Source: a virus (Duplodnaviria; Caudoviricetes). From it: a stretch of DNA of 64,000 bases. The translations under genes and the position numbers were made by a program. Shown here one piece after another: positions 4,481 through 61,238 of the stretch (the first letter of the stretch is position 1; the number at the start of each line of letters is the position of its first letter). The DNA is taken from the IMG/VR virus record IMGVR_UViG_3300035522_000179, positions 64,001 to 128,000 of that record. One strand, 5' to 3'. A model generated the notes under the pieces. That model did no database searches, was not told the DNA's origin, and worked only from the letters and a program-made list of their open reading frames with translations.

Positions 4481-4493
4481 TTAACAGATTGTT
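4481..4493 (-). promoter_or_regulatory. Late-type promoter AACA-N6-TAA
   Basis: Minus strand reads aaca atctgt taa. Confidence 0.65.
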
Positions 4494-4523
4494 TTTTCCA
4501 TTAGAATAAGGAAAATTTAAACA

Positions 4524-4531
4524 TATATTAT
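4524..4531 (+). promoter_or_regulatory. Early-type promoter core TATATTAT
   Basis: Lies upstream of the 4612-5835 operon. Confidence 0.6.
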
Positions 4532-4611
4532 TTTTATAGATAAATACACGAGGTTTTGACTGAAAACTTATGTTTTTATTCACAATTTATTAGGAGAAAG
4601 GGGAGTTAGAA

Positions 4612-4737
4612 ATGAAGAAAAAGAAGTATAGTGATAAGTATGAAAACTTCAATATCTCAGAAGCTTTGGAGAAGTTGCTCTCAAAAAGAAGAGCGAAAGA
4701 AGATACCAAGAATCTTTGGAACAAAAAGAAAAAGTGA
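4612..4737 (+). CDS. Small lysine-rich protein (41 aa), absent from the ORF track
   Basis: GGGGAG RBS; MKKKKYSDKYENFNISEALEKLLSKRRAKEDTKNLWNKKKK*. Confidence 0.55.
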   Translation: MKKKKYSDKYENFNISEALEKLLSKRRAKEDTKNLWNKKKK

Positions 4738-4785
4738 TTGTAAAGGGAAACCTTTTCAATAGATTTTATTAAGGAGGAGAAAGAA

Positions 4786-5382
4786 ATGACAGAAACAGGT
4801 ATTTCAGAAGCATTGAATGATCTGGCTGATGAAGTAGTTCAAGAAAGAATGAAAGATATGCTAGATGAAGAATATGCAAATGACACGAAGAAAAAGAATC
4901 GTTTTAACCGTGAAGTCTTCAATAAGTTCCTTGTTACTGCGGCAAGTGATCCGAATTTCACTGCTTATGTAGCGCGTATAAAAAAGGGCGAATTTCAGGG
5001 TTACCAAGATATTGCTGTAGGAAAAGAGTTCCGCAAGTGGATAAGAAATCTGGTTGAAAAAGCAGGAGTTGATCCGGTAGAATCTGTGATTGTGGAAAAT
5101 GAAGATTTCCCTATTGGAAAAATGGATTGGATGTATGATTTCTTTGCAGAGGTTCTTTGGTTATACCTTCAGACATATCGGTTTGAACTTCCTAAGAAAG
5201 AAGGATTTGAAGCGATCTTGGAGTTACGAGATGTTCCGGGAGGTACGAAAGTATCTAAGAGTAAGAAACCTGGAACTTCCGAAGTCATTGGAACCTTTGA
5301 GATTACAAAGCAACCGCATAAGACCCTGGCGGTAAAGAGCCGTTGCCCTAGTTATTTAACATCAAGAAGAAAGGTGGATTAA
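4786..5382 (+). CDS. Hypothetical protein, possibly DNA-binding
   Basis: AAGGAGG RBS; the basic C-terminal beta-hairpin only weakly recalls an HU arm. Confidence 0.6.
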   Translation: MTETGISEALNDLADEVVQERMKDMLDEEYANDTKKKNRFNREVFNKFLVTAASDPNFTAYVARIKKGEFQGYQDIAVGKEFRKWIRNLVEKAGVDPVESVIVENEDFPIGKMDWMYDFFAEVLWLYLQTYRFELPKKEGFEAILELRDVPGGTKVSKSKKPGTSEVIGTFEITKQPHKTLAVKSRCPSYLTSRRKVD

Positions 5383-5385
5383 TTT

Positions 5386-5835
5386 ATGTTTGAATTCCTT
5401 CGTCCACGTAAACGTGTTGTAATTCGCGTTACAAATATAGGATTACTCCCTGTTAAAAGTGAGAATGGTGACTGGTACGATTTAAAGTGTGGTCAGGCGA
5501 TAGTACTTAAGAAAGGAGAACGTGTAGACATTCCTATGGGAGTTGCAATGAGGCTTCCCAAAGGATATGAAGCAATCGTTCTTCCTAGATCTTCCACCTG
5601 CCGAAAATTAAATATCGTAATGGAGAATTCCATGGGAGTTATCGACAATTCCTACAACGGAAATGAAGATATCTGGAGATTCCGTGCATATGCTTTGGAG
5701 GATACTGTGATTCCTTACAAAGCAAGAATTGCACAGTTCAGGATTCAGAAGAATCAACCGAAACTTCAGTTTCGTGTAGTAAAATCCCTCAGCAGAAAAT
5801 CCCGCGGTGGATTTGGAACGAGTGGATTGTTTTAA
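5386..5835 (+). CDS. dut: Trimeric dUTPase
   Basis: Motifs YDL, PRSS, GVIDNSYNG, RIAQ and C-terminal RGGFGTSG. Confidence 0.95.
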   Translation: MFEFLRPRKRVVIRVTNIGLLPVKSENGDWYDLKCGQAIVLKKGERVDIPMGVAMRLPKGYEAIVLPRSSTCRKLNIVMENSMGVIDNSYNGNEDIWRFRAYALEDTVIPYKARIAQFRIQKNQPKLQFRVVKSLSRKSRGGFGTSGLF

Positions 5836-5840
5836 CCTTT

Positions 5841-5883
5841 AAAGAAACTAGATACGATTTTATTCGTATCTAGTTTCTTTTTT
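5841..5883. terminator. Bidirectional terminator
   Basis: aaagaaactagatacga...tcgtatctagtttcttt between convergent genes. Confidence 0.8.
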
Positions 5884-7132
5884 ATTCTAATTTGAAAATT
5901 TTTGAAATCAAGTTGTTAATCGTTTCTGGGCTAATACATATCATAATCGTATAAGTAAAGAATCCAAAATCTTCATTGAGGAATTGAATTTCAAAGTTAT
6001 TGAAGTCAACTTTAAATTCTGTTTCGGGATTCATAAATCTTCCCTGTTCTCGAATCTTAATATCTATAATTTCTCCTAAGTAATATCCTTTTTCTACGTA
6101 ATGATTTACGGCAGCGATAATCGATGGTGATAACATGGATTTGAAATTGATCGTATCATGCACTTTTCCCAATCGACAAGTTGCTCGATTATACTGGCAC
6201 CATCCCGTCTTCAATTGCCAATCTTCTCGTAATAACACATCGGTGTAAATTGGAATAATCGAACTATCATCCGGAAGACTTGGCTTCTTAATCTTAAATA
6301 CCTTATCCGAAAATAAGAAATAAAATCCTGTGGAATAAAACTCCATCTTGATGGTCATTGTGATACGATAATCATCACTGATCTGTCCACTTCGTTCTCC
6401 ATCATCTACATCCATATTCTGAACCGTTGTAATTACTTTAGCAGGATAATAACGATAGAACTCTTTGGAGTTTGTGCTTCCTTGTAATTTGTAAGTAACT
6501 GGTGTATTGGAGTGTTGATTCATATAAGAAAGAAACGGTTTTATTGATCCATCTCTCTCAATCGGAACGCCAGACAACTCAGAAATCATTTCCATTAGTT
6601 CTACCGAAAGATAACTCTCAAAACAAGTATCCAAATCAAACGGAGAATTTAATGGTAAGGAATTCTTTAAAAATGTTGCATAATCCAATTGTTGCATCAG
6701 TGTAGCAAATACCATAATAACATCAATATACATCACTGTTCGATTCATCTGATACTTAATTGCAACCTTGTTCTCTCGATCAAAAAAGAAGGGTTGTAAT
6801 CCATCTCTTCCAAAATTAATTTGGTTATAGATGAGTCGGTCGGTTAAAGGAGTTCCTTGTAAAAAACGATCCTCTTGGAAGTCAACTCTCGGTCGAATTG
6901 CAAGGATTGGCTTTGTATTTTTACTAATCTCTTTCGGAGTTCTTCGAAGTTGCATATGAGCAATCTTAGAACTGACGTTAATGGATCGAAAAATGCTATC
7001 TCCGTTATCTCTTTTTGGGAATAGATCAATCAACCATTTTTGTATAAATGCAACGGCATTACCGTAGGTATGAGCACTTGAGGACATCATCTGAAGATAT
7101 TTCACTGGATGATTTTTTTCTTGTTCTTCCAT
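5882..7132 (-). CDS. Probable virion structural protein; start reassigned to 7132
   Basis: AAAGGA RBS and GACA-N6-TAA at 7156-7168 precede ATG at 7132; divergent from the tape measure gene. Confidence 0.6.
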   Translation of the reverse strand: MEEQEKNHPVKYLQMMSSSAHTYGNAVAFIQKWLIDLFPKRDNGDSIFRSINVSSKIAHMQLRRTPKEISKNTKPILAIRPRVDFQEDRFLQGTPLTDRLIYNQINFGRDGLQPFFFDRENKVAIKYQMNRTVMYIDVIMVFATLMQQLDYATFLKNSLPLNSPFDLDTCFESYLSVELMEMISELSGVPIERDGSIKPFLSYMNQHSNTPVTYKLQGSTNSKEFYRYYPAKVITTVQNMDVDDGERSGQISDDYRITMTIKMEFYSTGFYFLFSDKVFKIKKPSLPDDSSIIPIYTDVLLREDWQLKTGWCQYNRATCRLGKVHDTINFKSMLSPSIIAAVNHYVEKGYYLGEIIDIKIREQGRFMNPETEFKVDFNNFEIQFLNEDFGFFTYTIMICISPETINNLISKIFKLE

Positions 7133-7212
7133 ACTTTTTACGTCCTTTCTTTTCTTTAACATATTGTCGTTTTCCGAAATAAAAAAGAGAATACCATGAT
7201 TTTTAGGCAAAA

Positions 7213-7225
7213 AACAATTTGTTAA
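7213..7225 (+). promoter_or_regulatory. Late-type promoter AACA-N6-TAA
   Basis: aaca atttgt taa before the tape measure gene. Confidence 0.7.
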
Positions 7226-7257
7226 TACTTCACAGAAGGGAAGTGAAAAGAAATATT

Positions 7258-10200
7258 ATGGCGGGTAATAAAAGAGAAATCAAACCCACTGATAGTTATC
7301 AAACTCGCTCTTTTAAGCTAAATGCGCAATGGCTTAAAAACGCGACAAAATCAATTGGATCAAACGCTGCAGAAGTTTTATCTGACGTTACTCCAAGTTT
7401 GTATAGTGCCGCTTCCACTTCAGCTGATATTGTACGCTCCATAAAAGGAAGTAGTGCAACATCAAAGAATGTAAAGAAACTGATCGATAATAATACCTAT
7501 GTGAAGAATGCCAGAAAAGCAATCTCAAATGCTTTTAAGGATTTATCCACAGGTAATTTTAACAACACGGATCGATTCGGTGATGTAGATGATGGAAAGT
7601 CACACACTTATATGTCTGACTTTGATGACGGTGCTGAGGGAGAAGGAAGTAATCAAACAGTTATTAATTTTAATCCCGAAGGATTAAATTCGATCAATAG
7701 TTCAATCAATAATCAAACGAAAGCACAGCTGCAAGCAGCAAAAGCAAATGCAGATATCGTAGTAGCAACATCGTCAGCAATGATGACGATGAATCAAAAG
7801 AATGCAGAAGCTACTCTGAATATGCTTTCGAATATCAACAATGGAATTCAGGCGTTAGTAAAATACAATAATGATACCATGACGAACTTTATCCAAAGTA
7901 GCATGGGATTTTACGACGCGATTGGGAAAGCATATACTTCGAATAAAAACGATAAGAAAAACGATGAAGATAAGAGACTTGGATTTAAAGACATCCTCGA
8001 TGCCAACGGAAATTTAAAAGGAAAAGACTTAGTAAAATTATTAGGTCAGAATACCAAAGATGCGTTTAATACATCTATGGTTGGTACTTTGAAAACCATG
8101 TTGGATACCGGAATGGATAATATCGTTTCCAATCCGTTGAATGTTATATCAACGGTTTTGATGAAGAAGATCCTTCCTGAAAAAATTGAGAAGTCCATGA
8201 AGAGTTTGGATAAAACATTCGCTTCATTCACAACGGAAATGCTTTTGAAAGCATCCGATTATTTTGATAATCTGGATGATGGACCATTAGCTCAGTTTGG
8301 AGGATTTCTTGGAAAATCATTAAATATTGGAACCGATCGAAAGAGTAAATTTAAAACCGGCGGAAAAGTAACAAAAGATGCTGCTGTTTTTGATGGAATT
8401 ACACAACACGCAATCACAACGGAAATCCCGAAGTATTTAAGAGAAAGCACATCGTATTTGAGGCAGTTGGTTGCGTTAAATGGTGGTGATCCAGATAAGG
8501 CTTTAAAGAACTCTGAAATTTTCAATCGTGAAACAGGTACTTTCGATAAGTATGGAGAGTACATGAAAGATATGATGGGTTCGATTAATGAATCGATTAT
8601 CAATACTTTCAACGATAGTGAACTTGGAAAGAATTTAACGAAAGTCTTAAACAGCAATGTCATCGGTAATAATGACAAAGAGTCTTTTCAGGAGTTGATC
8701 AATAAATTCTATCTTGCAATGGAAAAAGATGATAGAAAAGTACTTGATATCAACCGTGGAAAAGATATTTCAGATATCATTGATGGAATTGCTGGAAATA
8801 GTAAATTGAAGGATATTCTGGAGGAGTCCGTTTATTCTGCGATTGACTTAGGAGAAGGAAACCTTGGTGTGAACTCCATTCGTCATAAAGCAAGAAGTAG
8901 CCGTAATGACAGAATCGAGGAATTGGAAACCAATAATCTTTCGGATCTTTCTACCTTTGTAAAGAACGGTAATACCATTGACGATGCGATCGCTGCTGTC
9001 CTTTATGGTGATGATGGAAGAGCGACCCAAGCACAGAATGTCAATCCAAATTCTGTTATGGGTCATTTGAAATCTATCGAAGACTTACTTTACAGAGGTA
9101 TCAATGTAAAGGTAGTAAAAGACTTTGGAGATACAAATGGTATTTTTGATCTTTTTGGATCCAGAAGAAACAATTCGACTCAGACAACGGATTCTACCAC
9201 TCCGCAATCGAATGATTCTGATTCGAAACTGGATGAGAGTGCAATCAAAGATGTATTAGCTGCAGAGGAATCCAACGGAAGCAATGATGGGAATACTTCA
9301 AGATTTATACAAGACAATTCCAAACGATTAAAGAACATGATGCATTTCATGATCACTGGAAACACAGGTCTTGCTTATAAAGAAATGGGTGGTATGTTTG
9401 GAAGTACCATCTCAAATCTTGGATCGAAATTAAACAATTCTGTTTTGGAACCTCTAAAGAAGAAAATCTTTGGAGATAAAAAAGAGGACGAGAACGGTGA
9501 AAAAGAAGAGAGCATCTTTGAAGGAGTAAAACGGGTCTTCAATAATGTGAAGAAAGAAACCCATGATTTCATTTTCGGAAGCAAAGAAGAAGGAAATGAA
9601 AAAGAGGGTATCGTTCAAAAAGGTGCTTCTTTATTCAAAGAAGGATTTGAAGGTTGGAAACTTGCTATCTTTGGAAGTGATGATGAAGCACAGAAATTCA
9701 AAGAAAAAGCTCAGAAGACTTTAAAAGACCGTGCAAAGAGTACCGGAATGGGTGCAGTCGCTGGTGCAGGTCTTGGAGTCACCATGGGTGGTGTTCTTGG
9801 AAATCTTGTTGGTGGTCCTTTAGCTGGAGCAGTTCTTGGTGCTGCTACTGGATTTATCTCGAAGTCATCAAAATTTCAGGAGATCGTTTTCGGTAGGGAA
9901 TCTGATGGTCAAGGTGGATTCAAAGATGGCGAAGATGAAAATGCTGGAATTATAAATAAGAAAACAAGAGAGTTCTTTAAAAATAACAAAACCGATTTCA
10001 TCGGTGGTGGTGTAGTTGGTGCTGGTCTTGGTGCACTGACTGGTGGAGGACTTCTTGGTACTTTGGTCGGTGGTCCCGTAGCTGGTGCTTTGATGGGAAC
10101 GGCTGTCCAGATGGTAAGAAAATCGAGTGCCTTCCAGGATATGTGGCTTGGTAAGGAAGATGAAGAAGGTAAACGTTCCGGTGGTATGAAGGAACGCCTT

Positions 10201-13200
10201 ATGAAAGCTTTCGCTGGTTCTGACGCTGGTAAAGAGGCAAAGAGCTCTGCAAAACTTTTCGGAATGAGTGCTGTTGGATCTGGTGCTGGTATCCTTGCAA
10301 GTTTCTTCACACCTCTTGGACCGATTGGTGGTGCCGCATTGGGACTTGGTGCTTCCATGTTAGCACAAAAAGAAGGATTCCATAAATGGCTCTTCGGTGA
10401 TGAGGATAAGGAAAAAGGCGAGCCTGGTCTGTTAAAGAAGATGGGTAACATCATCGATACTCATGTTATCATGCCTTTAGCAGATACTGCAAAGGACTTC
10501 ATGGATAGCGCAAAAGATGCGATCATTGATAAGATCGTAGATCCTTTGGAAAATCTTTTGGGACCTCTTGCTGGACTTGCAGAAAGTATCCGAGATTCCG
10601 TAAGTGACTTCATGGAAGGAATTAAAGAGAGAGCGAAAAACTTATTTAAAACCATTACAGACAACGCAGTAGATGCTCTTAGTAATGTGACATCGAAAGT
10701 TATGGATTTCATGAAAGGAACAATTTTTGGTAAAATCGCTGGAAAGATTCTTGGAGCTCCTGGAGCTGCAATGAATGCAATCGGAAATAAGATACGAAAA
10801 GGTAACGAAAAGAGATCCTTAAAACGTGTCAAAGGAAAATGGAAAAATAGTAATGCTGGTAAAGAATTTTATGCTGACGTGGATTCTTCATGGGCAAACA
10901 TGTCTGATGAAGAGAAATCTCAGTATGATGATTATGATGATTACTTTAATTCTAGAGCAAAAACAAAATTCTATTATTCCGAAGACAGACGTGGTGAGCA
11001 GGCAAAGGATAGAAAATCTCGAAAAGAGACTCGTGAAGCAAGAAGACAAGAAAGAGCAGACATCACAAATCAAAAGAAGTTAATTGCAAGATTAACTGGT
11101 GGTGCTACGACGGATATCACAGACGAGACAAAACAAGCTGCTCTGAATAACTTCAAAGATTCCAAATACTACGTGAAAAATAAAAAGCTATTAGGAATGA
11201 GTAATGAAGAAGTTATGAGGCTTCTTTCTCCGAAGAAAGATGAAGACGCTGCTAAGACTCAAGAGGAAACGTTGAATAACGCTGAGGAGCAGTTGACTGC
11301 CGCAAAAGAATCTGCTACGAGCCTTAATTCAATTGATACCAAAGTTACTGAGGTCATATCCTATTTAAACCAACGTATTTTTGGTAAAGATGAAAATGAA
11401 CCAGAAAAGGAATATTCTAATCACGACCAAAAATTAATTGATCGAGCTGATAAGAGAAATGCTTCCGCGGAAGCAAATAAGAAATTCGAAGAAGGCTATA
11501 ACGCTGAAAAAGAAAAGAAAGATGCTGAGCGAGCACAGAACGCAATTGATCGGCAAAAAGCAGTTGAACATGGATTTATGTCGGAAGAAGAAGCTGCTGA
11601 GGAACAGGCGGCAGAGGATGAAGACGCAGCTAGAGAAAACCACCAGGGTTTTAAACTTGGGAAGTTTAGAAGAGCTGGGCTTTTTGTAAAATCTATCTTC
11701 AGTAGAAATAAATCTGTTCGAGACAGTGCTTCCGCTGTCCGTAATATGTTAAAAAGCGGAGATGCATCTGGATATGATTTAGAGAATGCTTACAATGCTT
11801 ATCGTGATACGAAAAAAGCTGTAAAGAAAGAAAAGAAAGATTCTAGATTTGCGAAAGCATTTCAAAGGAGAAATCTTGCAGAATCTGTAAAGAATTTTGT
11901 AAAAGCTGGTGGTCGTGCATTCGCTGAAGGCGGTGAAACAGAAGAACCTGGTGTTGTAGCCGTTGGTGAAGAAGGACCTGAACTTGTAAGAGTAAAGGGT
12001 AACGAAGAGATTATCCCGAACGATAAAGCAATCAAAGTTCAAGTGGTTGCAATTGACGATGATGTAACGAAAAAACTGAATGAAGAGAAAAAAGATAACG
12101 CAATCGTGGATGTGAATATCGTAGGTCAGAATGGTTTGCTTGCAACTTACGGTACGAAAGCAACACTGGATGAAAACACTGATAACAAAGCACAGATTGA
12201 AAAAGACTTATCAAAGAAAGATAGTTTGGTAAGTTACGATAACGTAAAAGCTGATAATGATGATGATAATGAAACCGAAGAAAAAGAAGAAAAACAGAGT
12301 TTCTTCTCAAAGATTTTAAGTTTGTTCGGAAGTAGTGGTGGATCTGGATTACTTGGAATTCTTGGTAAAGTTGCAGTTGCAGGTGCTGGAATTTATGCGT
12401 TCTTTAAAAGCGAAACATTGCAGAATATCCTAAAGAGTCTTCTTAGTCTTGGTGGAAAATTGTTAACAAGCCTCGGAACAACAATTGGTGATGTGGCGAC
12501 TGACACCGTTGAGAATGTCAAATGGACTTCTGAAAATAATGCTTATGAGAATGGTGCTGATTTCTCTACCAACCTCAGTAATCAAGCTCAGAGAGCAACA
12601 GCCCTTGCAAGTGGTGACATCGGAACAGCTCTCCTTGGAACCGATGGAGAAGCGGATGGAATTACTAGCGCTGGTCTTAAAGTCGGAAGGAACATCGTGC
12701 AAAAAGTAGCCACCGGTAATACCGGAATGGTTAGAGGAGCTGCATCTCAGGTTAAGTTGGCAAAGAATCTTATCAGTGGAAAAGGATTAGCTGAATCTGT
12801 TACCGATGCAGCTTCTGGTCTGAAAGGTATTTCTGGTGCAGTAGCAAATATGACCAAAAGCGCTGCGGAAGATGGTGCAAAATCTGTTGTCAAAGATGCA
12901 GCGAAAGAAGGTTCTGAAGGAATTTTAAAGAAAGTTCTCGAAAAGATCACGGAAGTTCTAAAAAGTATTGGTGAAACTATTGCTAATAAAGTAAAAGGAA
13001 AAGCCGCAGACATTATAAAACCAGCTCTAAAAGTAGTGGAAGAGGCTTTAGATAAAATCACCAAAGGATTATATGGAAAATTTAAGGATCTGATTGTGAA
13101 AGGTATTAATAAAATACGAAATCTCTTAACTGGAACAGCTGCTGTTGCATCTACTGGCGTTGGACTGATTGGAATTGTTGTACAGAAAGGTGCATTCGTT

Positions 13201-18802: not shown

Positions 18803-18842
18803 AACAAGTTCATAAGGAGTCTAACCCACTCCTTATGAACTT
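18803..18842 (+). promoter_or_regulatory. Late-type promoter overlapping a 15-bp hairpin
   Basis: aaca agttca taa; aagttcataaggagt...actccttatgaactt. Confidence 0.65.
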
Positions 18843-22235: not shown

Positions 22236-22291
22236 AGAAATCACCTCCTTCTACAATCCTTTAATGATTTTTGTAGAAGGAGGTGGACCTT

Positions 22292-22561: not shown

Positions 22562-23578
22562 TTATACCGCTACAGGGAAATCAACTCTCTGCATATGATA
22601 ATAATCTTCTACCTTGACATCATCAATGGTAGTATCAAAGAAGTTCGTTCCTTCGGAAGTAATCTCCAACTTCGGCTCGCAATCGTAAATCTTTACGAAA
22701 TCAAACGTCGGATCTTTCTCCATAAGAGTTTTCACATACTCATTGATTGCGGAGAAGAAAGTTACTGATGCAACATCAAACTCATCATCCTCTAAACTTC
22801 CATTTGCAAGTGCTTCCAGAGTTTTCAAGAAGGTCTCGTTAGTAAACTCCTCCGGATCCTCTTCTTTCTTAGAAGCAAGGTATCTGTCACGGATCTGACC
22901 AACGGACAGAAGCACTCTGTACTGCCCAATCATCTGCTTGCATCCTTCAAACTGATTCTCATAAATGTGAGCATCGGCTGCAACGAAGGTCAAAATCCCA
23001 GGCTCTACTCCAAGATGCTTTGCAAAGAGTTTGTTAAGTACCGTGTACTGGAAGATGTTAAACACTCCTCCGACCAAAATGTCACAGCTTCTGGATACCA
23101 CCAAGACATTCAACTTATTATCGACGATATCCCACGTACTTGTGTAAACACAAGGAGTAATGGACATCTCCGGAAGATCTGCGTTGTTCCACAAATCAAT
23201 CACGGCTCTTCTGGTAGAAGAATCCTTTGCAAGATCATTCAATACCCGATTCACCTGATCGTATTTCTTAATCTGATATCCATAGGTCTTCTGAACGATT
23301 CCGTTCTCATCTGCCCAATCATCCCAGATATGGGGTCTCAAATCATGAATATCATTGCTTCCGTCACGGAAGATCCAGAAGGCTTCCTCAACAGAAGATT
23401 TCCAAAAAGTATGCTTTGATTTTAAAAGCGGGCACTCCGTAGCACAATCTACGGCAAGTACCATGTGAGAGATACGTCTGGTTGCGATTCCAGTTCTCTC
23501 ATTTTTCTGGTAAAAACCATTCTGCATAATGTCAAATACCCAGTTCATAAACTGGTACTCATAGCGTGAAATAGACAT
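22562..23578 (-). CDS. thyA: Thymidylate synthase family protein
   Basis: ERTG, IWDDW, YGYQ, SSTRR, catalytic PC, RSCD..FN, HIYEN and C-terminal FPVAV. Confidence 0.92.
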   Translation of the reverse strand: MSISRYEYQFMNWVFDIMQNGFYQKNERTGIATRRISHMVLAVDCATECPLLKSKHTFWKSSVEEAFWIFRDGSNDIHDLRPHIWDDWADENGIVQKTYGYQIKKYDQVNRVLNDLAKDSSTRRAVIDLWNNADLPEMSITPCVYTSTWDIVDNKLNVLVVSRSCDILVGGVFNIFQYTVLNKLFAKHLGVEPGILTFVAADAHIYENQFEGCKQMIGQYRVLLSVGQIRDRYLASKKEEDPEEFTNETFLKTLEALANGSLEDDEFDVASVTFFSAINEYVKTLMEKDPTFDFVKIYDCEPKLEITSEGTNFFDTTIDDVKVEDYYHMQRVDFPVAV

Positions 23579-23660
23579 ATTCTATTTCCTCCTTTCGTTT
23601 ATTATTCATTTGTCTTTTTCAATATAAGAATCCAATTTGTAAACTGGAAATTTTAATACG

Positions 23661-24739: not shown

Positions 24740-24784
24740 CCTTTCTTAAAGATTTTAAGTATTTACGTTATTGTTTTTCTTCTT

Positions 24785-25372: not shown

Positions 25373-25527
25373 AGTATCACCCTTCTTTTTCTTTTTATAT
25401 TTTTTCCTTAAAGAAATGTGTGCGTTAGAAAAATAAAAAAGTAATCAGAGGTAAACAGAATAGTAAGCGATGAAAATCGCGATAGAAAATACCCGTTCAA
25501 ACTGATTATTTAGTGTGAAACACCCAA

Positions 25528-25566
25528 AGACCCCAACTACTAGAACCCCTAGTAGTTGGGGTCTTC
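25528..25566 (+). terminator. Perfect 17-bp stem hairpin
   Basis: aagaccccaactactag / ctagtagttggggtctt. Confidence 0.7.
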
Positions 25567-25584
25567 CCTATTTTTATACCAAAA

Positions 25585-25597
25585 AACAATCCCTTAA
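25585..25597 (+). promoter_or_regulatory. Late-type promoter AACA-N6-TAA
   Basis: aaca atccct taa. Confidence 0.7.
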
Positions 25598-33680: not shown

Positions 33681-34502
33681 CTAAGGCATAAATATTTTTT
33701 CGGTTTCCCCGTTTTGAAATTTCTCTTTTGCCACGTTTAAGTAGTTTAAGAATTTCAAATGATTCATATTCTCAATCTTGATATAATTAAATGTATTTTT
33801 ATTGGATCGCATTACGTCGTCTTTTAATTTCTCTTTTACTTTATCCACTGCTTGAATTTTCTCATGCATGTTTGGATTGTCTCCACCGTCTTTGATCTCC
33901 ACCTCTAAATTTAAAGAAGGGATAAAAAAGTCGGGAATATAAAAATGGGTTTCTCCTTCATACTGATAATAGTATGTATGAGGACTTGGAGCAATGATAT
34001 CGGTTGCATCGAAGTTTAAATCCAGATCCAAAAACTCCAAGAATTTCTTTTCATAACTTCCTGTGTATGGAATCTCTACATGGAAATCTTTTGACCACCG
34101 ATATACTCCAGAGATTTTTCTATTTGCAAGCATTTTCTTTTGCTGTTCAGGATCATTCAAAAGAGAAACTTTTCCGTACTTTCCGATCATTCTCTTTTTA
34201 AAGATCTCTCGGTAAATCTCTTTGCATTTCGGGTTATCACAAAAGCGATTGTATTTATGAGTAGAGGTGTTCCACCTTGTTTTCTTCTTACAGATAATGC
34301 AACTGCCGTTCATCTTACCTGTTTTTAGATAGTAGTAATACTGCCACCCGTCCATATCTTCTGGGATCATATCTCCATGCACCTCTTCTAAGTGAAGAAC
34401 ATAAGCATCTACATCTATAAAAAAGGTATCGCAATATTTGCAGCGTGTTTTCGATCTCATTTTTTGCATTTCCCTTATTACCTGCCTTCCTGCAAATTTC
34501 AT
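33681..34502 (-). CDS. Zn-finger plus TnsA-like PD-(D/E)xK endonuclease (T4 gp4 head-completion-like)
   Basis: CKYC..HLEEVH, CIIC..C..C, YTGSYE, YIPDFF..LEVEIK; true start probably ~34469. Confidence 0.65.
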   Translation of the reverse strand: MKFAGRQVIREMQKMRSKTRCKYCDTFFIDVDAYVLHLEEVHGDMIPEDMDGWQYYYYLKTGKMNGSCIICKKKTRWNTSTHKYNRFCDNPKCKEIYREIFKKRMIGKYGKVSLLNDPEQQKKMLANRKISGVYRWSKDFHVEIPYTGSYEKKFLEFLDLDLNFDATDIIAPSPHTYYYQYEGETHFYIPDFFIPSLNLEVEIKDGGDNPNMHEKIQAVDKVKEKLKDDVMRSNKNTFNYIKIENMNHLKFLNYLNVAKEKFQNGETEKIFMP

Positions 34503-34596
34503 TAAGGTATTGTCAAATGTATTTAAATAACGATTTCTTATATTAATTTATAATCAAAAATACACTTTTGTAAGGAAAGGCGGGTGAAATAAGCAT

Positions 34597-37352: not shown

Positions 37353-38639
37353 TTATTCTTTCCAATATTTTGCAGTATCGAAATTGTGTGCTTTGGACAA
37401 CTCAACTCCAGAGAAGAATGCTCCTCCAGGAGTAAGATTCCCATCATAGAAACGAACTCCCATTTTCACTTCGTCATGTTGATGAATGTATTTAGCTAGA
37501 TCTGTAAACAGCTCCCACCCATTTGATTCTTCTTTGGTTAAATAGATAACTCTGGCATATACTACGTCATCCCCTCTAAGACCAGATGACTTCTCTCTGT
37601 AGAATAACAGTTCTGCCTTGTAAATGGTTCCATCAGAAAGATCTTTCATATTTGTTTTGTAAAGATATGTAGCATTATACTTCTCAATGATTCTGTCAAT
37701 CAAAGGAGCTTCTACATCTTGATCAAAACAGGAAATGACTTCTTGTCTTTCAAATCCACCATTCGGATTGTGGTGCATTGCAACTAAGTTTGTTTTCATT
37801 TCAGTGCAGACATGCACTAAAGAACAGAGAGGCATTTGCAAACCAGATAAGTAAACGATTAATTCTCTTTGCGGTTTTCCATCTTTGAAAGGAATGTTTT
37901 TCGTGATGAATTCACGGCAGATACGTTCCTGATCTTCAAAGTCATCGAATCCATGAATGTCAAAATAATCCGCCTCAAAGATATAATCTTTCACTGGCAT
38001 GTTATGCCTTTCTGCAATCAGACCAACCTTTACAGAAGATTGTAAATCGTTGGCGTCAACAGCTCCCTCAATGATTGGAACAACCTTCATCTGGAACTGC
38101 CCAGTTGGTTCAGGTTTCTTTTCTACGGATACCGGAGAAGGATTGCCAATTTTCCTTTCCTGGATCATAGAAATCTGAGACTTCTTCTTGGGTGCTACAA
38201 CTGGTTCGGGTTCAGGAACTTCCTCTACAACGGTTTCCTTCTTAACCCGTGGTTGTACCAAACCAAGATCCTTCTTGATTTTGTTTACCCGATAAGACGT
38301 TGTATTCATTGTTTTCACAATCTCTGCAACAGATCTCCCCTCTGATAGAAGGTCAATAATTACACTGACATCATCCTTCACTTCTTCTTCAACGATTGTA
38401 GGAATCTCTTCTTCAACCTCTTCTGCTACCTCAACCGGTTTCTTAGAAGCGAGTTCCTTACTCTCCTGAATCAAAGCTTGATGAATTAGTTCCTTGTTCT
38501 GGTTTGCAATCTTGATCACATTTCCAATCTTCATGTTGTTTAGATTTGCGATCTCCTTCTTGCTTAATGTACCAGCTTGCAATTGTGCTACGATGATGCT
38601 TGTCTGTTCTTTGGATAAACTCTTTGATGATTTTGCCAT
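37353..38639 (-). CDS. Early protein with two N-terminal HTH-like motifs
   Basis: LSKKEIANLNNMKIGNVIKI and GRSVAEIVKTMNTTSYRVNKI; TATATTAT at 38686-38693 on minus. Confidence 0.65.
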   Translation of the reverse strand: MAKSSKSLSKEQTSIIVAQLQAGTLSKKEIANLNNMKIGNVIKIANQNKELIHQALIQESKELASKKPVEVAEEVEEEIPTIVEEEVKDDVSVIIDLLSEGRSVAEIVKTMNTTSYRVNKIKKDLGLVQPRVKKETVVEEVPEPEPVVAPKKKSQISMIQERKIGNPSPVSVEKKPEPTGQFQMKVVPIIEGAVDANDLQSSVKVGLIAERHNMPVKDYIFEADYFDIHGFDDFEDQERICREFITKNIPFKDGKPQRELIVYLSGLQMPLCSLVHVCTEMKTNLVAMHHNPNGGFERQEVISCFDQDVEAPLIDRIIEKYNATYLYKTNMKDLSDGTIYKAELLFYREKSSGLRGDDVVYARVIYLTKEESNGWELFTDLAKYIHQHDEVKMGVRFYDGNLTPGGAFFSGVELSKAHNFDTAKYWKE

Positions 38640-40292: not shown

Positions 40293-40341
40293 TTAAAATA
40301 TTGTTTTCTTAGCGGAAACATGTGGGAAAACATTAATTTAA
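40293..40341. promoter_or_regulatory. Divergent pair of late-type promoters
   Basis: Minus aaca atattt taa (40293-40305) and plus aaca ttaatt taa (40329-40341). Confidence 0.7.
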
Positions 40342-47227: not shown

Positions 47228-47277
47228 TTAGACTTAAAAATAAGGGGAAAACAATTTCCTAAAAACGGTATGGAAAG

Positions 47278-51036: not shown

Positions 51037-51040
51037 AAAT

Positions 51041-51080
51041 ATAAATCCAAGATACTAAAAATAGTATCTTGGATTTATTT
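51041..51080. terminator. Bidirectional terminator
   Basis: ataaatccaagatacta / tagtatcttggatttat. Confidence 0.8.
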
Positions 51081-51736: not shown

Positions 51737-51835
51737 TTTATTTCCCCCTTATTTAAAATAATATAAAAAAATTAAAGGGTTATAGAAACCCTTTAATTTT
51801 TTGTTAATAACATAATTAGTCAATCTGAGAATGAA

Positions 51836-53341
51836 TTACATATCGTCGTCGTCATCATCCTCATCATCGATTTCCCATTCGTTCTCATCCTCGTCGTCAT
51901 CCTTATCTTCATCGAAATACGAAGCAGGTGCATAGTTAAACTTACGAGGCTCAGCGGTACCAATGAAACTATCCAGTGAATTACGCTTGAGAGTAACCGT
52001 GCCATCATCATCAGATTCCTTTACTTCTTCAGGTTTCTCTTCCTCCTGCAGACCGAGCTCCTCATAACTAGCCACATTCTTCTTGAGCATGTTGTTCTTT
52101 TCAAGCACATTCTGGATGATTATCTGCTCAAGCTCTGCAGGATTCACAGGGAAGGTAATACCCTTAAGAACTTCCTTCGGATCGCCACCGCGATTCTCAA
52201 CCATCACCTTTGCATACTCCTCAGACAGGTCATCCATATCTATGCAGATATCAAATCTTCCAGATCTTCTAAGAGCGGGATCAAGCTTCTCCGGATAGTT
52301 AGTAGTTGCAACAACGATTGCACAGTTGTCCATGGTATCCATTGCTCTAAGAAGCTGTAACAATCTTCTGGAATGAGTCAGTGCATTGGTAATCTCTTTC
52401 TGAGAAGTCTCTGCACGATTGATCAACTGAGAGTCAATCTCATCGATGACGAACACAGTGTTCGGTTTGTTGAACTGGTTATCTCCCTCCTCCTTATCGA
52501 AGTAGTCCAGGTTCACAGAAACACAGTTCATATCCAGATGCTGTGCAAGAGAGAATGCAAATGCAGTCTTTCCTGTTCCAGGCTTACCGGAAAGAAGGAT
52601 TCCCAAACGATAAGGAACACTGAACTCTTTGTAGATTGCTTCCTTTGCAACGAAGTCAGAAATCTGTGCAAGGAGTTCCTCTTTTGCAGGGAAGGTAAGG
52701 AAGTTCATCGGGCGAATGCGAAGATCATTAGAAGCCTCACCTGCGGAAGAGATGGACTGATAACGAAGTCTGTTATTTCCCTGGGAGGACTTACTTACTT
52801 CAGATACCAGATCATCAATCTCTTTTCTTACTTTGTTATACCACTTCTCTCTGTGAGGACCAACGAAGAACATCTTTGTGGAGAAGTTCATCACCACGCC
52901 GGAAATGCCGTTGGAAGAACGATCGTCATCATTTAAGATCGGCTCTTTCACCACAATCATTCTGGTTCCGTCTTTGTCCATGCGAAGGCTGTAAAGTCCA
53001 GGAGCAATGGTTTTGTTTACCAGTTCCGGGAAGCAAGATACTTTCTTCTTTACTCTCTCGATAGATGCAGAGCAAAGTGCGAAGGAAGGATCCACATCCA
53101 TCAGGGTGGAGCCATACTTCTTGGATAAGTACTTGTTCTCAAGAACACTCACGCAGGACTTGGAGATATAAGTATCATAGTGACCGCTCACCTCAAAGAA
53201 GTTGCAGACATTCTCTTCCACTGCCTTCTTCAGACTCAACTTAATCGGGTCGATAATACGCTGTACTGAATAATGGGTGGCGTCAATTACTTTCTCGGTA
53301 ATTTGATTTGCAATAGCGAAATTTACTCCGTTAAAATACAT
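51836..53341 (-). CDS. BCS1-like AAA+ ATPase with an acidic tail
   Basis: PYRLGILLSGKPGTGKT (Walker A), VIDEID (Walker B), TTNYPEKLDPALRRSGRFD (SRH). Confidence 0.9.
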   Translation of the reverse strand: MYFNGVNFAIANQITEKVIDATHYSVQRIIDPIKLSLKKAVEENVCNFFEVSGHYDTYISKSCVSVLENKYLSKKYGSTLMDVDPSFALCSASIERVKKKVSCFPELVNKTIAPGLYSLRMDKDGTRMIVVKEPILNDDDRSSNGISGVVMNFSTKMFFVGPHREKWYNKVRKEIDDLVSEVSKSSQGNNRLRYQSISSAGEASNDLRIRPMNFLTFPAKEELLAQISDFVAKEAIYKEFSVPYRLGILLSGKPGTGKTAFAFSLAQHLDMNCVSVNLDYFDKEEGDNQFNKPNTVFVIDEIDSQLINRAETSQKEITNALTHSRRLLQLLRAMDTMDNCAIVVATTNYPEKLDPALRRSGRFDICIDMDDLSEEYAKVMVENRGGDPKEVLKGITFPVNPAELEQIIIQNVLEKNNMLKKNVASYEELGLQEEEKPEEVKESDDDGTVTLKRNSLDSFIGTAEPRKFNYAPASYFDEDKDDDEDENEWEIDDEDDDDDDM

Positions 53342-53422
53342 GGTTTTAATCTCCTTTTTGTTTAATAATGTTTCATAAGGTATTTTGATGTGGTAATGAA
53401 ATGAATCATTACCACATCTTTG

Positions 53423-56614: not shown

Positions 56615-58519
56615 TTATTCTACCTCTTCATCGTAATCAATGAAAACGGGATTGTAAGGACTCTGATCTCCAGGAGTAATCCAATCAATATGGATATTGT
56701 AGAAGAAGTCTCCATATCCGTTATATTCAGTCTTTTCGAAGATCACCCGAAATCTTTTGCTTGTATATCTATAATAGATGAAAGCCATGATATCATCAAA
56801 GTTCTTCTTGTACTTATCCGGGATAATCAGTTTCACTAGATTGTCATCTCTGTTGTACTTCTCGGTCGTAGCAAAGATGTTGATTCCATCATACCCATTC
56901 GTAGCGCAGGAAACCATATACTTGTCGATGATCTCTGCAAACTGATCTATCAGATCGTGACAAGGCAAGGGAATTGCATGTTTTGCATAGAAGCTCGTAT
57001 CCTGCAAATACTCCAGAGTGATAGGACCTTTGGAAACCTCCTTTTCATTGTTTTCTTTCTTTTCAATTTCTTTCTCTTCCATTGCTTTCTCCTCTTCTTT
57101 CTCGGTATTGGATTTTCTTGTGATTGAACATTTCACACGATTATTGATTCCTATAATATCCTTTTTATCAACTACAGAGAATCCTAAGTCGTTGATCTCC
57201 GAAATAATAGCATCTACCTCAGAAGACAACCCAAGTTCTGTAGGAATATAGATGTTTGCAAAGTCTGATTTCGCATAACAACTTCCATCTTTAATCGGTC
57301 CCACTCCTACATACTCGCGGAAATTGATAGGTACTTCCGTCTTTCCAAGGTCCATTTCTTCTTTTGCATATTCAACGATTTCCCGAGCTATATTAGATAC
57401 ATACAGATTCTTTTCAGGAGTAGGGGTGGTTCTCATGTTTTTATCAAGAGAATCAAATGTTTGAATAGGAATACTCATCTTGTAGTAATCGTCTCCGGAA
57501 AGATTTCCTGAGAGTTCCTTCGTTTCTTCCTCAGATTTCCTTCCCCAAGTGAATGCCAGATGAGCATATCCAGCACTCGGGCTATTAAAGCATCCGATCG
57601 TATATTCATAGTTGCATATAGATGAACTGATATATCTCCGTATAGCATCCACGATAAAATTAACACTAACGGGAGTCTCAAACGGTATTTTCAAAGCATG
57701 TGTAGCTTCAGTATATGCTTTTACTACTCTCGGATCTTCCGGGTCTGATACAAGGAAAACTTCTGCCGTGGAAAATCCACTGTCATTACATCTACAAATA
57801 AAACTCTTAATTTCATGAAGAATGCGATGCACCTCATACTCTCTCTTATGTCTGTTCATCAGGGTATCTCCTTTCACCTTGAATAAATTGGAATAACTAA
57901 AATCCTCTCTAGAGGATGAGTAGTAGGGATCATTCTTCACTCGTACCATATCTTCTTCCTCTTCCTCGCAGTAATTATCCCTGGAAAGATTTCCCAGTTT
58001 GCCGTAGTTCTCGTTCAATTGAATCGTTATTATAACGGAATACGGGTTGACATCTGTGGAGATAGTAATAGAAAATCCGCATGGGTTTATAGATTGTATA
58101 TAATCCCGCACTTTACCTATGATATAATCCGTTTGCTCATTCGTAAATGCTGACGGAATTTCAAAGGTTACGTCAGGGTTGTACCGCTTCAAAACTCTCT
58201 GATTTTTCACGTCTGTTAAAAGTAAAATTGTTACCGGTGAGGTTTCTTTACTAAAATGCTCAATGAAGAAACTCTCAATTTCATAAATAACGTGATGCAC
58301 CTCATACTCGGTCTTATACTTCTCCATCACTACATCTTCTTCCCCATCATCTGACACCGCCCGGACATAGTCCATATAAGCCTGCTCATTTTTTACGTCT
58401 TTTGCTTCTTTCTCCTTTGTCGTTTTTGCCTTTTTGGTCTTCTGGTTTTCTTTCTTACCAGATTCCTTCTTCGTGGTTTCGACCTTTTCTTCTTCTCCGG
58501 GCACTTTCTTTTTCGTCAT
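56615..58519 (-). CDS. Early protein with tandem repeated domains
   Basis: EYEVHHVIYEIESF / EYEVHRILHEIKSF; GNLSRDNY / GNLSGDDY; TATATTAT at 58597-58604. Confidence 0.75.
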   Translation of the reverse strand: MTKKKVPGEEEKVETTKKESGKKENQKTKKAKTTKEKEAKDVKNEQAYMDYVRAVSDDGEEDVVMEKYKTEYEVHHVIYEIESFFIEHFSKETSPVTILLLTDVKNQRVLKRYNPDVTFEIPSAFTNEQTDYIIGKVRDYIQSINPCGFSITISTDVNPYSVIITIQLNENYGKLGNLSRDNYCEEEEEDMVRVKNDPYYSSSREDFSYSNLFKVKGDTLMNRHKREYEVHRILHEIKSFICRCNDSGFSTAEVFLVSDPEDPRVVKAYTEATHALKIPFETPVSVNFIVDAIRRYISSSICNYEYTIGCFNSPSAGYAHLAFTWGRKSEEETKELSGNLSGDDYYKMSIPIQTFDSLDKNMRTTPTPEKNLYVSNIAREIVEYAKEEMDLGKTEVPINFREYVGVGPIKDGSCYAKSDFANIYIPTELGLSSEVDAIISEINDLGFSVVDKKDIIGINNRVKCSITRKSNTEKEEEKAMEEKEIEKKENNEKEVSKGPITLEYLQDTSFYAKHAIPLPCHDLIDQFAEIIDKYMVSCATNGYDGINIFATTEKYNRDDNLVKLIIPDKYKKNFDDIMAFIYYRYTSKRFRVIFEKTEYNGYGDFFYNIHIDWITPGDQSPYNPVFIDYDEEVE

Positions 58520-58770: not shown

Positions 58771-58782
58771 ACTGGATACCTC

Positions 58783-58938
58783 CTAATAACTCATCAATAA
58801 TATGACTATTATTAGAATTGCTATTATAATGGATCGAATAATACATCGGATAGATCTATTCATTATTTCTCCAATGAGGTCAAATACTAACATAAACATG
58901 ATTAAAGTCAGAATGCTAGTCTTTAACAATACTTCCAT
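58783..58938 (-). CDS. Small two-helix membrane protein (51 aa), absent from the ORF track
   Basis: AAGGAG RBS; MEVLLKTSILTLIMFMLVFDLIGEIMNRSIRCIIRSIIIAILIIVILLMSY*. Confidence 0.65.
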   Translation of the reverse strand: MEVLLKTSILTLIMFMLVFDLIGEIMNRSIRCIIRSIIIAILIIVILLMSY

Positions 58939-58951
58939 CAATTTTATCTCC

Positions 58952-59116
58952 TTATTGATATTCTCCTTTGAGTATAGAATATACTGCCCACACGAAAAAG
59001 CACAAGAGAAAACCTATAAGAAATCCTTTCTTACTCATTCTCATTCCTTCTTTTATACAAAGAATCATCAAAAGGATCTCTACTATAAGTGAAGCAAAAA
59101 TCTTAAATATGTCCAT
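58952..59116 (-). CDS. Small two-helix membrane protein (54 aa), absent from the ORF track
   Basis: GGAGG RBS; MDIFKIFASLIVEILLMILCIKEGMRMSKKGFLIGFLLCFFVWAVYSILKGEYQ*. Confidence 0.65.
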   Translation of the reverse strand: MDIFKIFASLIVEILLMILCIKEGMRMSKKGFLIGFLLCFFVWAVYSILKGEYQ

Positions 59117-59201
59117 TTTCGTCCTCCGCATTTATTTCTGGTTAGACAGTAGTATTCGCCCAGAGAAACCAAATTCTTAAGACGAACACTACTGTTTTTT
59201 A

Positions 59202-59378
59202 TTACAGGGTACAGAAGTTATACAGATCAATCTTCTGTCCTTTGGTTACAGAAAAGTAATCATTTAACAAACCAGTATCTCTCGATGTAATCATATGCTT
59301 TACTGGATCATACTTACGAAACATCTTCTTTACTGATTCATCCATAATTCCGATGATGTTTAAAATATCTCCGTCAAA
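59202..59378 (-). CDS. RNA polymerase beta' N-terminal subunit, exon 2
   Basis: FDGDILNIIGIMDESVKKMFRKYDP...YNFCTL* completes the NADFDGD motif. Confidence 0.92.
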   Translation of the reverse strand, partial: FDGDILNIIGIMDESVKKMFRKYDPVKHMITSRDTGLLNDYFSVTKGQKIDLYNFCTL

Positions 59379-59808
59379 CACGAGATCCCATATTTTTCAA
59401 TATGGCGTGGACTATATCTTCATCCTTAATCTATGTACACATTAAGGAGTCACGCGCTCCCACTCTAGCCCGCAAACTAGAATGTACCCTACTCAGAATC
59501 TTGATATCTTAGATATGATATTTCAAAATTCTTTTCAATAGTCTCTACACTTTATTATCTGTATTGCTAGATAATCTTAGCACGGTATTATCTGCTATCC
59601 ATTTCTGGACCGTAGGTTTTCTTACGAAGCTTATTCGCTCATGGATACTATATATATATATATAAATATAGCAGCTTATAATTGTCATATAAGCAATCTT
59701 AGTTCACTTCTACCGTTAGCAAGCTATATTATAACTCACACCGCTTGTTAGGCGTTCACGTGAAGCTCTGTATAGTATTACTACTATACACCGACAATGA
59801 CTTAGCTC
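59379..59808 (-). ncRNA. Group I self-splicing intron (430 nt, no ORF, probably subgroup IA)
   Basis: 5' exon ends in U, paired in P1 (GCCGAU/GUCGGU); terminal G; R-like GUAGAGACUAU; S element AAGAUAUAGUCC; P9 with a GAAA loop. Confidence 0.93.
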
Positions 59809-61038
59809 ATCGGCATTTAACCCACTAAGGATCGAGAGTGGAACCATCAATGTCAGGCACCCTTTATCTGGTCTAATCGTTCTTATATCCATCAGAATTA
59901 TGGAATAATAATTCAAAGTGGGGTTTCTGTTAATCACAACCGAAGGATGCTCGATATTAATGATCATCAACATAATCTCATAGATTCGTTGATCAAAATC
60001 GTATCCTTGTTCCCAAATGGTATTGGCTGCGGCTAACGAGATTCCATACATCTTCATTAAGTAATAAATGATTTTAAACTTAAACATGACATAGAAACAA
60101 CTGTATCCAAGATCTATTTCGTTATCTTTTAAACTAGGATCTGGACAAATGACATTTCGGGAAGTGAAGTTTAAAGATCCTCCAATCAACTGGTCTCTGA
60201 TCAAACCGTCTTTGGAGTTGATCAAATTAAAATTAAATTCCCAAATGGCATTGACTCTTTGTTGGATTCTTCCTAAGATCACAGGAGTTTCAATGTCTTC
60301 CGAATCCCTCAAATTCCTAGCAAGGTTTGTGAGGGTATTAATATCTTTATCAATTCCCGTAAAGTAAAAATTCTCACTGGTTACGGATTGTTGACGAAGA
60401 AGCGTAGTATAAACGGGAGCGTATGATGTAAATACTTTCAAACGCTCTTTGGAAATCAAATCAAAGGTACTGGCTTTGTTGGGTTTCTTCTTTCGATAAA
60501 AGTCTAAGACTTCATCAAAACGAAACCGGAATGATTCTAAGCCAATGCCACAAAACGGTGACTTGGGATCAAATTCTTTCATTTCCTCCGTAGTTAAATC
60601 CACTCTTCTTCCGTCTCGGTCTACTTTCTTCTTCGTATAAATAATTTCTGGGAATTCGTCTTTCCCAATCGCTGCTTGTAAGATGCGATAATAATGGGGA
60701 GCAACGATCTTCTTATTCCCAAAGGGAATCCATCCAGTCATTTTTGGATTCACGTCCTTAAACTCTACCTTTTGACCACACTTCGGACAAATCTCATCCT
60801 TAAAGGCAACCCCTGTGAATGCGCCACAATCACAAGAATACCGTTCTGCAAATGCCTGTTCGTCTGAAAATGTGGTACCAAACCGTGGGGACTGTGGACC
60901 ATTCAACGCTTTCTTTCGGGTTTCATCAATATCCACTTCCGGTGGATCTGTAATGAAAAACCCTCGTCCTTCGGCTACATCGGTGAATGCACAAACATCG
61001 AAGTTGAGCCTATTTACTTCTACTCTTCGTTTTCCCAT
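59809..61038 (-). CDS. Phage multisubunit RNA polymerase beta' N-terminal subunit, exon 1 (410 aa; 468 aa spliced)
   Basis: CDCG...CPKCG Zn finger, GWI, KDGLIR, SRNVICPDP, INRNPTL, GLNAD. Confidence 0.92.
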
Positions 61039-61070
61039 TGTTTACTCCTTTCTTAGTGCATAACGAGAAA

Positions 61071-61078
61071 ATAATATA
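61071..61078 (-). promoter_or_regulatory. Early-type promoter core TATATTAT for the RNAP gene
   Basis: ataatata on plus, 33 nt upstream of the ATG. Confidence 0.65.
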
Positions 61079-61238
61079 TTAGTAAAACTGAATTTAGAAA
61101 AGAATTCACTATTTCTCGTTATGTAACACGTTTTTTAAAAAATGGTATTTCATCTGTTTCAAAAACACTGACAAAAAAAAACAAATTAATAAATGATTTC
61201 AATAACCGAAAATTAAGAAAGATAAGAGGGTAAAAGAA

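Follow-up and report, generated by a model that had tools for sequence, protein, structure and literature searches.

The late promoters of Bacillus phage AR9 and of PBS1 are read by a non-virion RNA polymerase (nvRNAP) that forms a holoenzyme with the subunit gp226 (Lavysh 2017 PMC5312081; Sokolova 2017 PMC5449584; Fraser 2022 PMC9209446). The AR9 late promoter has been defined experimentally as 5'-A(-11)ACA-N6-T-A/G(+1) (PMC7598289, PMC9209446), and its recognition in the uracil-containing AR9 genome requires deoxyuridine (dU) at template positions -11 and -10. Reviews see in the uracil requirement the way in which jumbo phages that form no nucleus keep their polymerase off host DNA (PMC7598289, PMC13282480). 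The present analysis concerns a 64,000-nt stretch of DNA (the window), bases 64001-128000 of one 249,613-bp IMG/VR virus contig with 36% GC, in which the motif AACA-N6-TAA recurs ahead of genes. An AR9-type late promoter and nvRNAP occur here in a phage with the gene content of thymine DNA, and the system is likely to be uracil-independent. A sequence-only reading of the window had proposed such a system, and it is supported by the promoter-like motif, by an encoded nvRNAP with a gp226 homolog, and by a gene content that reverses the dU toolkit. No publication describing an AR9-type promoter system in a phage of the thymine-DNA type was found in the literature.

The phage is a distant relative of AR9. 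By tblastn, 49 of its 246 called proteins have matches in AR9 at 21-50% identity (mostly 21-39%), including four nvRNAP subunits, subunits of the virion RNA polymerase and many virion proteins, and megablast of 12 kb against an isolate-phage collection found no close isolate phage at the DNA level. The phage (G000) was compared with the relatives G001-G003, of which G002 is complete (275.5 kb), with a more distant complete relative, G006 (262 kb, 39.5% GC), and with a wider set of 13 near-complete genomes that carry a gp226-like gene. Five AR9-type uracil phages served as the contrasting set: AR9, BpSp, Listeria LPJP1, Staphylococcus S6 and Yersinia phiR1-37.

All ten AACA-N6-TAA sites and all five G/T/C-ACA variants listed in the sequence-only reading are present on the strands it gave, and three more were found: an exact intragenic match at 38486(-), an exact match upstream of a gene at 51793(-) and a variant at 22252(+). 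Comparison with shuffled sequence, proposed there as a check, separates number from placement. The number of AACA-N6-TAA copies in the window does not exceed chance (12, where shuffles give 17.05 ± 4.2), whereas their placement is far from random, with 11 of the 12 in intergenic DNA, which makes up 8.8% of the window. The same is true of the whole genome. Its intergenic DNA, only 27.3 kb (11%), contains 50 of the 59 copies, where dinucleotide shuffles give 10.2 ± 3.4 (at most 21 in 300 shuffles), and its coding DNA contains 6 against an expectation of 57 ± 6.6. A scan of upstream regions for every pattern of a 4-mer, a gap of 0-12 and a 3-mer, with no prior assumption, returned AACA-6-TAA as the top pattern once Shine-Dalgarno and poly-C patterns were excluded (39 against 4.4, z 16.4), with GACA-6-TAA also enriched (12 against 1.5). 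A custom expectation-maximisation motif search converged instead on reverse-complement Shine-Dalgarno sequences and T-runs. The TAA end of the motif mostly lies 24-36 nt ahead of the start codon, coincides in no case with the stop codon of the preceding gene, and belongs to a core that is preceded by a weak A-tract on its 5' side.

The motif is also kept out of genes. When synonymous codons were shuffled within each gene, leaving proteins and codon usage unchanged, 23.8 sense and 23.5 antisense copies were expected, compared to the 3 and 3 observed, an approximately 8-fold depletion. The G002 genome shows the same (4 sense and 5 antisense against 33 and 32), while in AR9 the depletion is mild, about 1.2- to 1.5-fold (37 and 22 against 45 and 34). 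That a seven-base word has been purged from both gene strands fits a signal that works in DNA and nearly suffices by itself. Conservation points the same way. Among 144 reciprocal-best ortholog pairs of this phage and G002, with a mean protein identity of 53%, NACA-N6-TAA lies upstream in both genomes in 42, in neither in 84 and in only one in 18 (odds ratio 46, p 7e-19), and the spacer sequence drifts while the core stays. In G006, AACA-6-TAA is again the top upstream pattern apart from Shine-Dalgarno sequences (38 against 3.1), and 46 of its 54 copies are intergenic. On these statistics, AACA-N6-TAA behaves as a real and conserved AR9-type promoter. The sites in the window are as follows.

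4481..4493, minus strand: predicted late promoter AACA-N6-TAA, 26 nt ahead of the gene at 3229-4455(-); AACA-N6-TAA also at the G002 ortholog
7156..7168, minus strand: GACA-N6-TAA variant, 24 nt ahead of the gene at 5882-7132(-); GACA also at the G002 ortholog
7213..7225, plus strand: predicted late promoter ahead of the 3844-aa tape-measure-like gene at 7258-18792; identical 13-mer in G002, AACA-N6-TAA in G006
18803..18815, plus strand: predicted late promoter ahead of the virion gene at 18864-20378 (AR9 gp204 homolog)
22252..22264, plus strand: TACA-N6-TAA variant, 28 nt ahead of the open reading frame (ORF) at 22283-22543
23602..23614, minus strand: GACA-N6-TAA variant, 24 nt ahead of ThyA; TACA at the G002 ortholog
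24763..24775, minus strand: predicted late promoter, with a Shine-Dalgarno sequence and ATG about 36 nt downstream on the minus strand
25408..25420, minus strand: CACA-N6-TAA variant ahead of the gene at 24785-25372(-); CACA at the G002 ortholog
25454..25466, plus strand: predicted late promoter with no ORF behind it, ahead of a unit of about 105 nt that ends in a hairpin and U-run
25585..25597, plus strand: predicted late promoter ahead of the 1106-aa gene at 25624-28944
34502..34514, minus strand: GACA-N6-TAA variant ahead of the gene at 33681-34370(-) (AR9 gp232 homolog)
34561..34573, plus strand: TACA-N6-TAA variant ahead of the gene at 34597-35016; TACA at the G002 ortholog
38486..38498, minus strand: exact match inside a gene, the only such match in the window and probably due to chance
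40293..40305, minus strand: predicted late promoter ahead of the gene at 39007-40257(-), forming a divergent pair with 40329
40329..40341, plus strand: predicted late promoter ahead of the virion gene at 40373-41722 (AR9 gp213 homolog)
47250..47262, plus strand: predicted late promoter ahead of the gene at 47293-48288
51793..51805, minus strand: predicted late promoter, 57 nt ahead of the gene at 51080-51736(-), newly found here
61180..61192, plus strand: predicted late promoter ahead of the gene at 61239-61970

The sites share the consensus [A>B]ACA-N6-TAA, and where the motif is correctly placed its ACA and its T, A and A hardly vary. As in AR9 and PBS1, a non-template AACA core, which would occupy -11 to -8, is followed by a 6-nt spacer and by T-A at the start site. 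If the numbering of AR9 applies, ACA would lie at -10 to -8, the T at -1 and the first A of TAA at +1, where AR9 has A or G, and the resulting leaders would be about 26-38 nt long, Shine-Dalgarno sequence included. The start-site element is longer than that of AR9, in which the base after T-A/G is free; here it is a fixed A at +2, giving TAA.

The position corresponding to -11 also differs. AR9 promoters are essentially strict for A at -11, whereas the 61 correctly placed sites of this phage carry A in 40, G in 11, T in 7 and C in 3. A relaxed first position had been suggested from the window, and the base is indeed degenerate. It is not simply relaxed, since it falls into two conserved classes: compared with the G002 orthologs, 23 promoters have A in both genomes and 14 a base other than A in both, with only 4 discordant (37 of 41 concordant, p 3.5e-7). 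The two classes also stand ahead of different genes. AACA is found ahead of virion genes in 9 of 10 cases, and G/T/C-ACA ahead of replication, recombination, nucleotide and transcription genes in 7 of 10, among them those for primase, DNA polymerase, UvsX, SbcC, SbcD, ThyA and the nvRNAP beta'C subunit. The choice between A and another base at -11 may be a middle/late or strength code.

The site at 25454 differs from the others in having no ORF behind it. The unit it heads (25454-25575, plus strand) stands directly 5' of the promoter for gene 25624 and ends in a 17-bp hairpin and U-run at about 25527-25573 (minimum free energy -43.2 kcal/mol, z -8.9). This unit could be a small late RNA. Two further patterns mark upstream regions genome-wide: runs of at least seven C are strongly over-represented (15 against 0.2 expected), and the palindrome-like GTAT-N10-TAC and TGTA-N11-TAC are enriched (13 against 1.7).

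The phage encodes the enzyme expected to read such a promoter. Homologs of all four split beta and beta' polypeptides of the AR9 nvRNAP are present, betaN at genome positions 155217-156695, betaC at 177600-179849, beta'C at 198818-200914 and beta'N within the window, together with a homolog of gp226 (numbered gp225 in RefSeq). The AR9 early-promoter core TATATTAT is likewise shared; of its 50 copies 38 are intergenic, and it stands ahead of both the beta'N gene and the dUTPase operon. The window features that bear on transcription and nucleotide supply are these.

4524..4531, plus strand: AR9-type early promoter core TATATTAT, upstream of the pair formed by the gene at 4786-5382 and dUTPase
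5386..5835, plus strand: trimeric dUTPase with five motifs, following 4786-5382 downstream of the early promoter
22562..23578, minus strand: ThyA-type thymidylate synthase of 338 aa with an insert of about 85 aa
59716..61038, minus strand: nvRNAP beta' N-terminal subunit (AR9 gp269/270 homolog, E 1.6e-25)
61071..61078, minus strand: early promoter core, 33 nt ahead of the nvRNAP beta'N gene

The gp226 homolog would be the promoter-specificity subunit that the sequence-only reading had called for. It lies outside the window at genome positions 50655-53353 (G000:C1; L009:3656-6354), at a locus syntenic with AR9, after a GroEL-like gene and the gene found upstream of gp226 and before the primase gene. 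The gene is in two pieces, 50655-51413 and 52442-53353, separated by about 1.03 kb that contain an ORF for an HNH endonuclease; AR9 also has introns bearing HNH genes in its polymerase genes. The last bases are GT in exon 1 and G in the intervening sequence, and joining the pieces restores the peptide ...VYVKTKVM... of the relatives, six of which in IMG/VR have the gp226-like gene as one uninterrupted ORF. The interruption is what a group I intron would give, a call that rests on the exon junction because Rfam returned no group I match at E <= 1. A hidden Markov model built from the clade matches AR9 gp226 over its full length (residues 10-461 of 464, E 3.4e-31). An AlphaFold model of the intact protein of a relative (pLDDT 87.8) matched in Foldseek only AR9 gp226 (7S01_A, E 3e-17; 7UM0_A, E 2.7e-15) and phiKZ gp68 (E 2.9e-5). 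The protein is thus a full-length homolog of AR9 gp226 in sequence and fold. The C-terminal piece on its own found no match by tblastn against the isolate-phage collection. The family comprises 367 cluster representatives at E <= 1e-3.

In the base pocket of AR9 gp226, Val206 excludes the C5 methyl group at -10, and the V206G mutant accepts thymine there (Fraser 2022, PMC9209446). Ile207 and betaN Arg363 sandwich the -10 base and betaN Lys375 hydrogen-bonds it, while Tyr210 stacks on -9G; at -11, uracil is selected through packing against the DNA backbone (PMC9209446). AR9 gp226 also binds the non-template AACA, which is free of U and T (PMC9209446). Val206 lies in the 2.1bis helix and is conserved in all homologs from dU phages. 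In this phage and in L010 its equivalent is Arg, and in L012 and L015 it is Lys, by both MAFFT and profile alignment. In the same alignments the Ile207 equivalent stays hydrophobic and Trp208 aromatic, and Tyr210 is replaced by Gln; betaN Lys375 is replaced by Asn. With Val206, Tyr210 and betaN Lys375 all replaced, the pocket is remodelled relative to AR9. Candidates for the basis of uracil-independent recognition are this remodelled -10 pocket, a lost -11 contact and a greater reliance on the non-template AACA. Among the closest parallels is the engineered V206G holoenzyme of Fraser 2022, an AR9-type enzyme that accepts thymine at -10 with the promoter sequence kept. That enzyme carries a single mutation made in the laboratory and continues to disfavour T at -11; in this phage the whole 2.1bis helix differs naturally. 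Position 206 is Gly in the mutant, Arg or Lys here, and Val, Thr, Met or Ile in relatives; it varies across the family (V 24, K 15, T 11, P 10 and G 10 of 104).

The case against a uracil genome comes from nucleotide metabolism. The dUTPase and ThyA on which the sequence-only reading relied are real and intact, as judged by motifs and family-profile matches. The dUTPase retains all five motifs (GDWYDL, PRSS, GVIDNSYNG, RIAQF and RGGFGTSG), is related to B. subtilis YncF at E 3.7e-36, and is about 50% identical to the crystallised YncF and YosS. The ThyA homolog keeps the catalytic Cys, the R-S-x-D motif and Asn177, rather than Asp, at the base-specifying position. A gene with a dihydrofolate reductase (DHFR) domain, G000:C1:53459-54598 (L009:6460-7599), adjoins the gp226 gene. 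Both dUTPase and ThyA are found in all four of G000-G003 and DHFR in three of the four; none of the three occurs in any of the five AR9-type uracil phages. The dCMP-deaminase-family Dcd (PF00383) shows the opposite distribution, with none in the four and one in each of the five. In uracil phages Dcd, a dCTP deaminase, makes dUTP for dU-DNA (Li et al. 2025, PMC12697855), and the dU-DNA toolkit further removes dT nucleotides by Dtm (PF06941 or PF12917) or Dtt (PF01725) (PMC12697855). The toolkit pairs Dcd with the absence of a phage dUTPase and thymidylate synthase, and this phage departs from it on both counts. The HAM1-type dTTPase (PF01725) and PF12917 were also absent from this phage, while the Dtt control of phiR1-37 was found. 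Uracil-DNA glycosylase (PF03167) and thymidylate kinase (PF02223) were absent from both groups and are therefore uninformative. Across the wider clade of 13 genomes, 11 have dUTPase, 7 ThyA and 2 a deaminase, both of the latter together with ThyA. Because ThyA and DHFR would make dTMP, dUTPase would destroy dUTP, and the deaminase is missing, the DNA is most likely thymine DNA; gene content indicates this strongly, and it also argues that the requirement for dU at template -11 and -10 is absent.

DNA with a C5-substituted uracil other than thymine, such as 5-hydroxymethyl-dU or a hypermodified thymidine, is an unlikely alternative, and one in which the polymerase would still be uracil-independent. 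The ThyA homolog would then be a dUMP hydroxymethylase, and the dUTPase would exclude plain dU. The thymidylate synthase family does include dUMP hydroxymethylases, and enzymes of the dUTPase type are encoded by hydroxymethyluracil phages as well. The ThyA homolog has diverged, reaching at most 37% identity with annotated phage thymidylate synthases, and has a conserved insert of about 85 aa, and many ORFs of the phage are unassigned. However, its PF00303 score of 206 bits is near that of T4 td (215+83) and well apart from the hydroxymethylases, which score 50-78 bits (SPO1 gp29 78, T4 gp42 58, ViI 54, phiW-14 51). It passes the NCBIfam model TIGR03284 (118 bits, cut-off 108). It retains the synthase-only IWDxWAD, with Trp80 and Trp83, and the C-terminal PVAV, and lacks the pre-Cys insertion common to the SPO1 gp29, T4 gp42, ViI and phiW-14 hydroxymethylases, which in turn lack the tryptophan motif and this C-terminus. 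In these sequence features it is a thymidylate synthase and not a hydroxymethylase. DHFR supports a true synthase because it is needed only to recycle the dihydrofolate that the synthase reaction produces. About 45 proteins were scanned against Pfam and PHROG, and no base-modification enzyme emerged among them. The one suggestion of unusual chemistry in this set was a weak radical-SAM-like protein at G000:C1:234062-235054(+) (PHROG E 3.5e-11, Pfam below cut-off). The ThyA insert itself (residues ~215-302) separates the H-x-Y motif from the C-terminal segment. Relatives have it too (frames of 336-378 aa); the matched bacterial ThyA structures lack it. The DHFR domain (residues ~205-366) follows, in one fused protein, a hydrophobic N-terminal stretch of about 190 aa that appears membrane-spanning, and G001 has a similar 404-aa frame.

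Several observations weigh against a thymine-reading polymerase. BetaN keeps Arg363, the residue that in AR9 stacks on the -10 base. All of the relatives that retain Val206 (G006-G009 and G011) have dUTPase, and ThyA is found in four of these five; because of them position 206 is not diagnostic, and the Val206 column was rejected as a predictor of U or T specificity. ThyA has a promoter of the late type (GACA), although an enzyme that makes precursors would be expected earlier. More than 100 ORFs have no family match, and they could conceal a base-modifying enzyme or a route to dUTP through non-homologous proteins. PF06941 had no match in this phage, but the AR9 dTMPase control was also missed, so that this result is uninformative.

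A uracil-DNA genome after all, in which dUTPase, ThyA and DHFR would serve an early phase or moonlight and dUTP would come from an unrecognised enzyme, is quite improbable. It agrees with the conserved Arg363 and with a promoter core and a polymerase of the type that in AR9 strictly needs dU (PMC5449584, PMC9209446), and dU-DNA pathways have arisen independently with unrelated enzymes (PMC12697855). Yet the clade has conserved dUTPase and ThyA, whose activities work directly against dU incorporation, and the distribution of these two, with that of DHFR and the deaminase, is the reverse of that in the uracil phages. BLAST found no match to AR9 Ugi, the gp150 nucleotidase, the gp209 kinase or a dCMP-deaminase. 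The degeneracy at -11 also differs from the strict A of AR9. Finally, a PhuZ-like tubulin gene, found here behind an early promoter (G000:C1:243951-245108(-)), is present in all eight complete clade genomes tested and in none of the five uracil phages; PhuZ tubulin is typical of RNAP-encoding jumbo phages with thymine DNA (2020 review, PMC7598289).

That the motif instead serves a sigma factor of the host or a regulator of the phage, or acts as a leader element in RNA, is barely credible. In favour of this is the nearness of the motif to ribosome-binding sites. Against it, every base agrees with the AR9 nvRNAP consensus established by experiment, the 6-nt spacer included (PMC7598289), and sigma-70 geometry is lacking. 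The motif is also avoided on both gene strands as a signal in DNA and not in mRNA would be, heads an ORF-less unit ending in a terminator, and is accompanied by a complete cognate polymerase.

The likely system is therefore an AR9-type one that does not depend on uracil. The observations are motif statistics, conservation, homology and gene content, and from them the reading enzyme, the point of transcription initiation and the make-up of the DNA in bases are deduced. [A>G/T/C]ACA-N6-TAA would be the late, and probably also the middle, promoter of this phage, read by the four split beta and beta' polypeptides with the gp226-like protein as a sigma-like subunit. The polymerase would accept thymine, or make no pyrimidine contact, at template -11 and -10. 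A broader scenario can be offered only tentatively and is somewhat doubtful: a large uncultured clade may have kept the template-strand promoter system of AR9 while switching to thymine DNA. The -11 contact, C5-methyl-excluding in AR9, would have been freed and may now serve as a timing or strength code. AACA would then mark the late genes, for the virion, and G/T/C-ACA the middle genes, for replication, nucleotides and transcription. Host DNA, no longer told apart by uracil, may be shielded otherwise, with the polymerase kept off it by the longer TAA element, by the strict removal of the motif from phage genes and perhaps by PhuZ-linked compartmentalisation.

Compartmentalisation invites comparison with phiKZ, which has thymine DNA and a phage nucleus. 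Both are jumbo phages with two multisubunit RNA polymerases, a fifth subunit of the gp226/gp68 family and a PhuZ tubulin. Unlike here, the phiKZ late promoter is TATG with no -10-like element, and the fold match to gp68 is much weaker than that to AR9 gp226. No chimallin was identified in this phage; a 634-aa acidic early ORFan at window positions 56615-58519(-) was considered and dropped, having no Pfam or PHROG match and no G002 homolog.

For metagenomic jumbo phages, the comparison yields a gene-content rule that separates uracil from thymine DNA, namely Dcd as opposed to dUTPase, ThyA and DHFR. If the uracil-independent system is real, its polymerases would supply natural base-pocket variants for structure-function work and a compact, host-independent promoter system of seven bases for ordinary DNA. 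The uracil requirement has been seen as the peculiarity that defines the AR9 polymerase. A natural and widespread thymine-DNA branch would instead make this requirement a lineage-specific addition to the promoter system.

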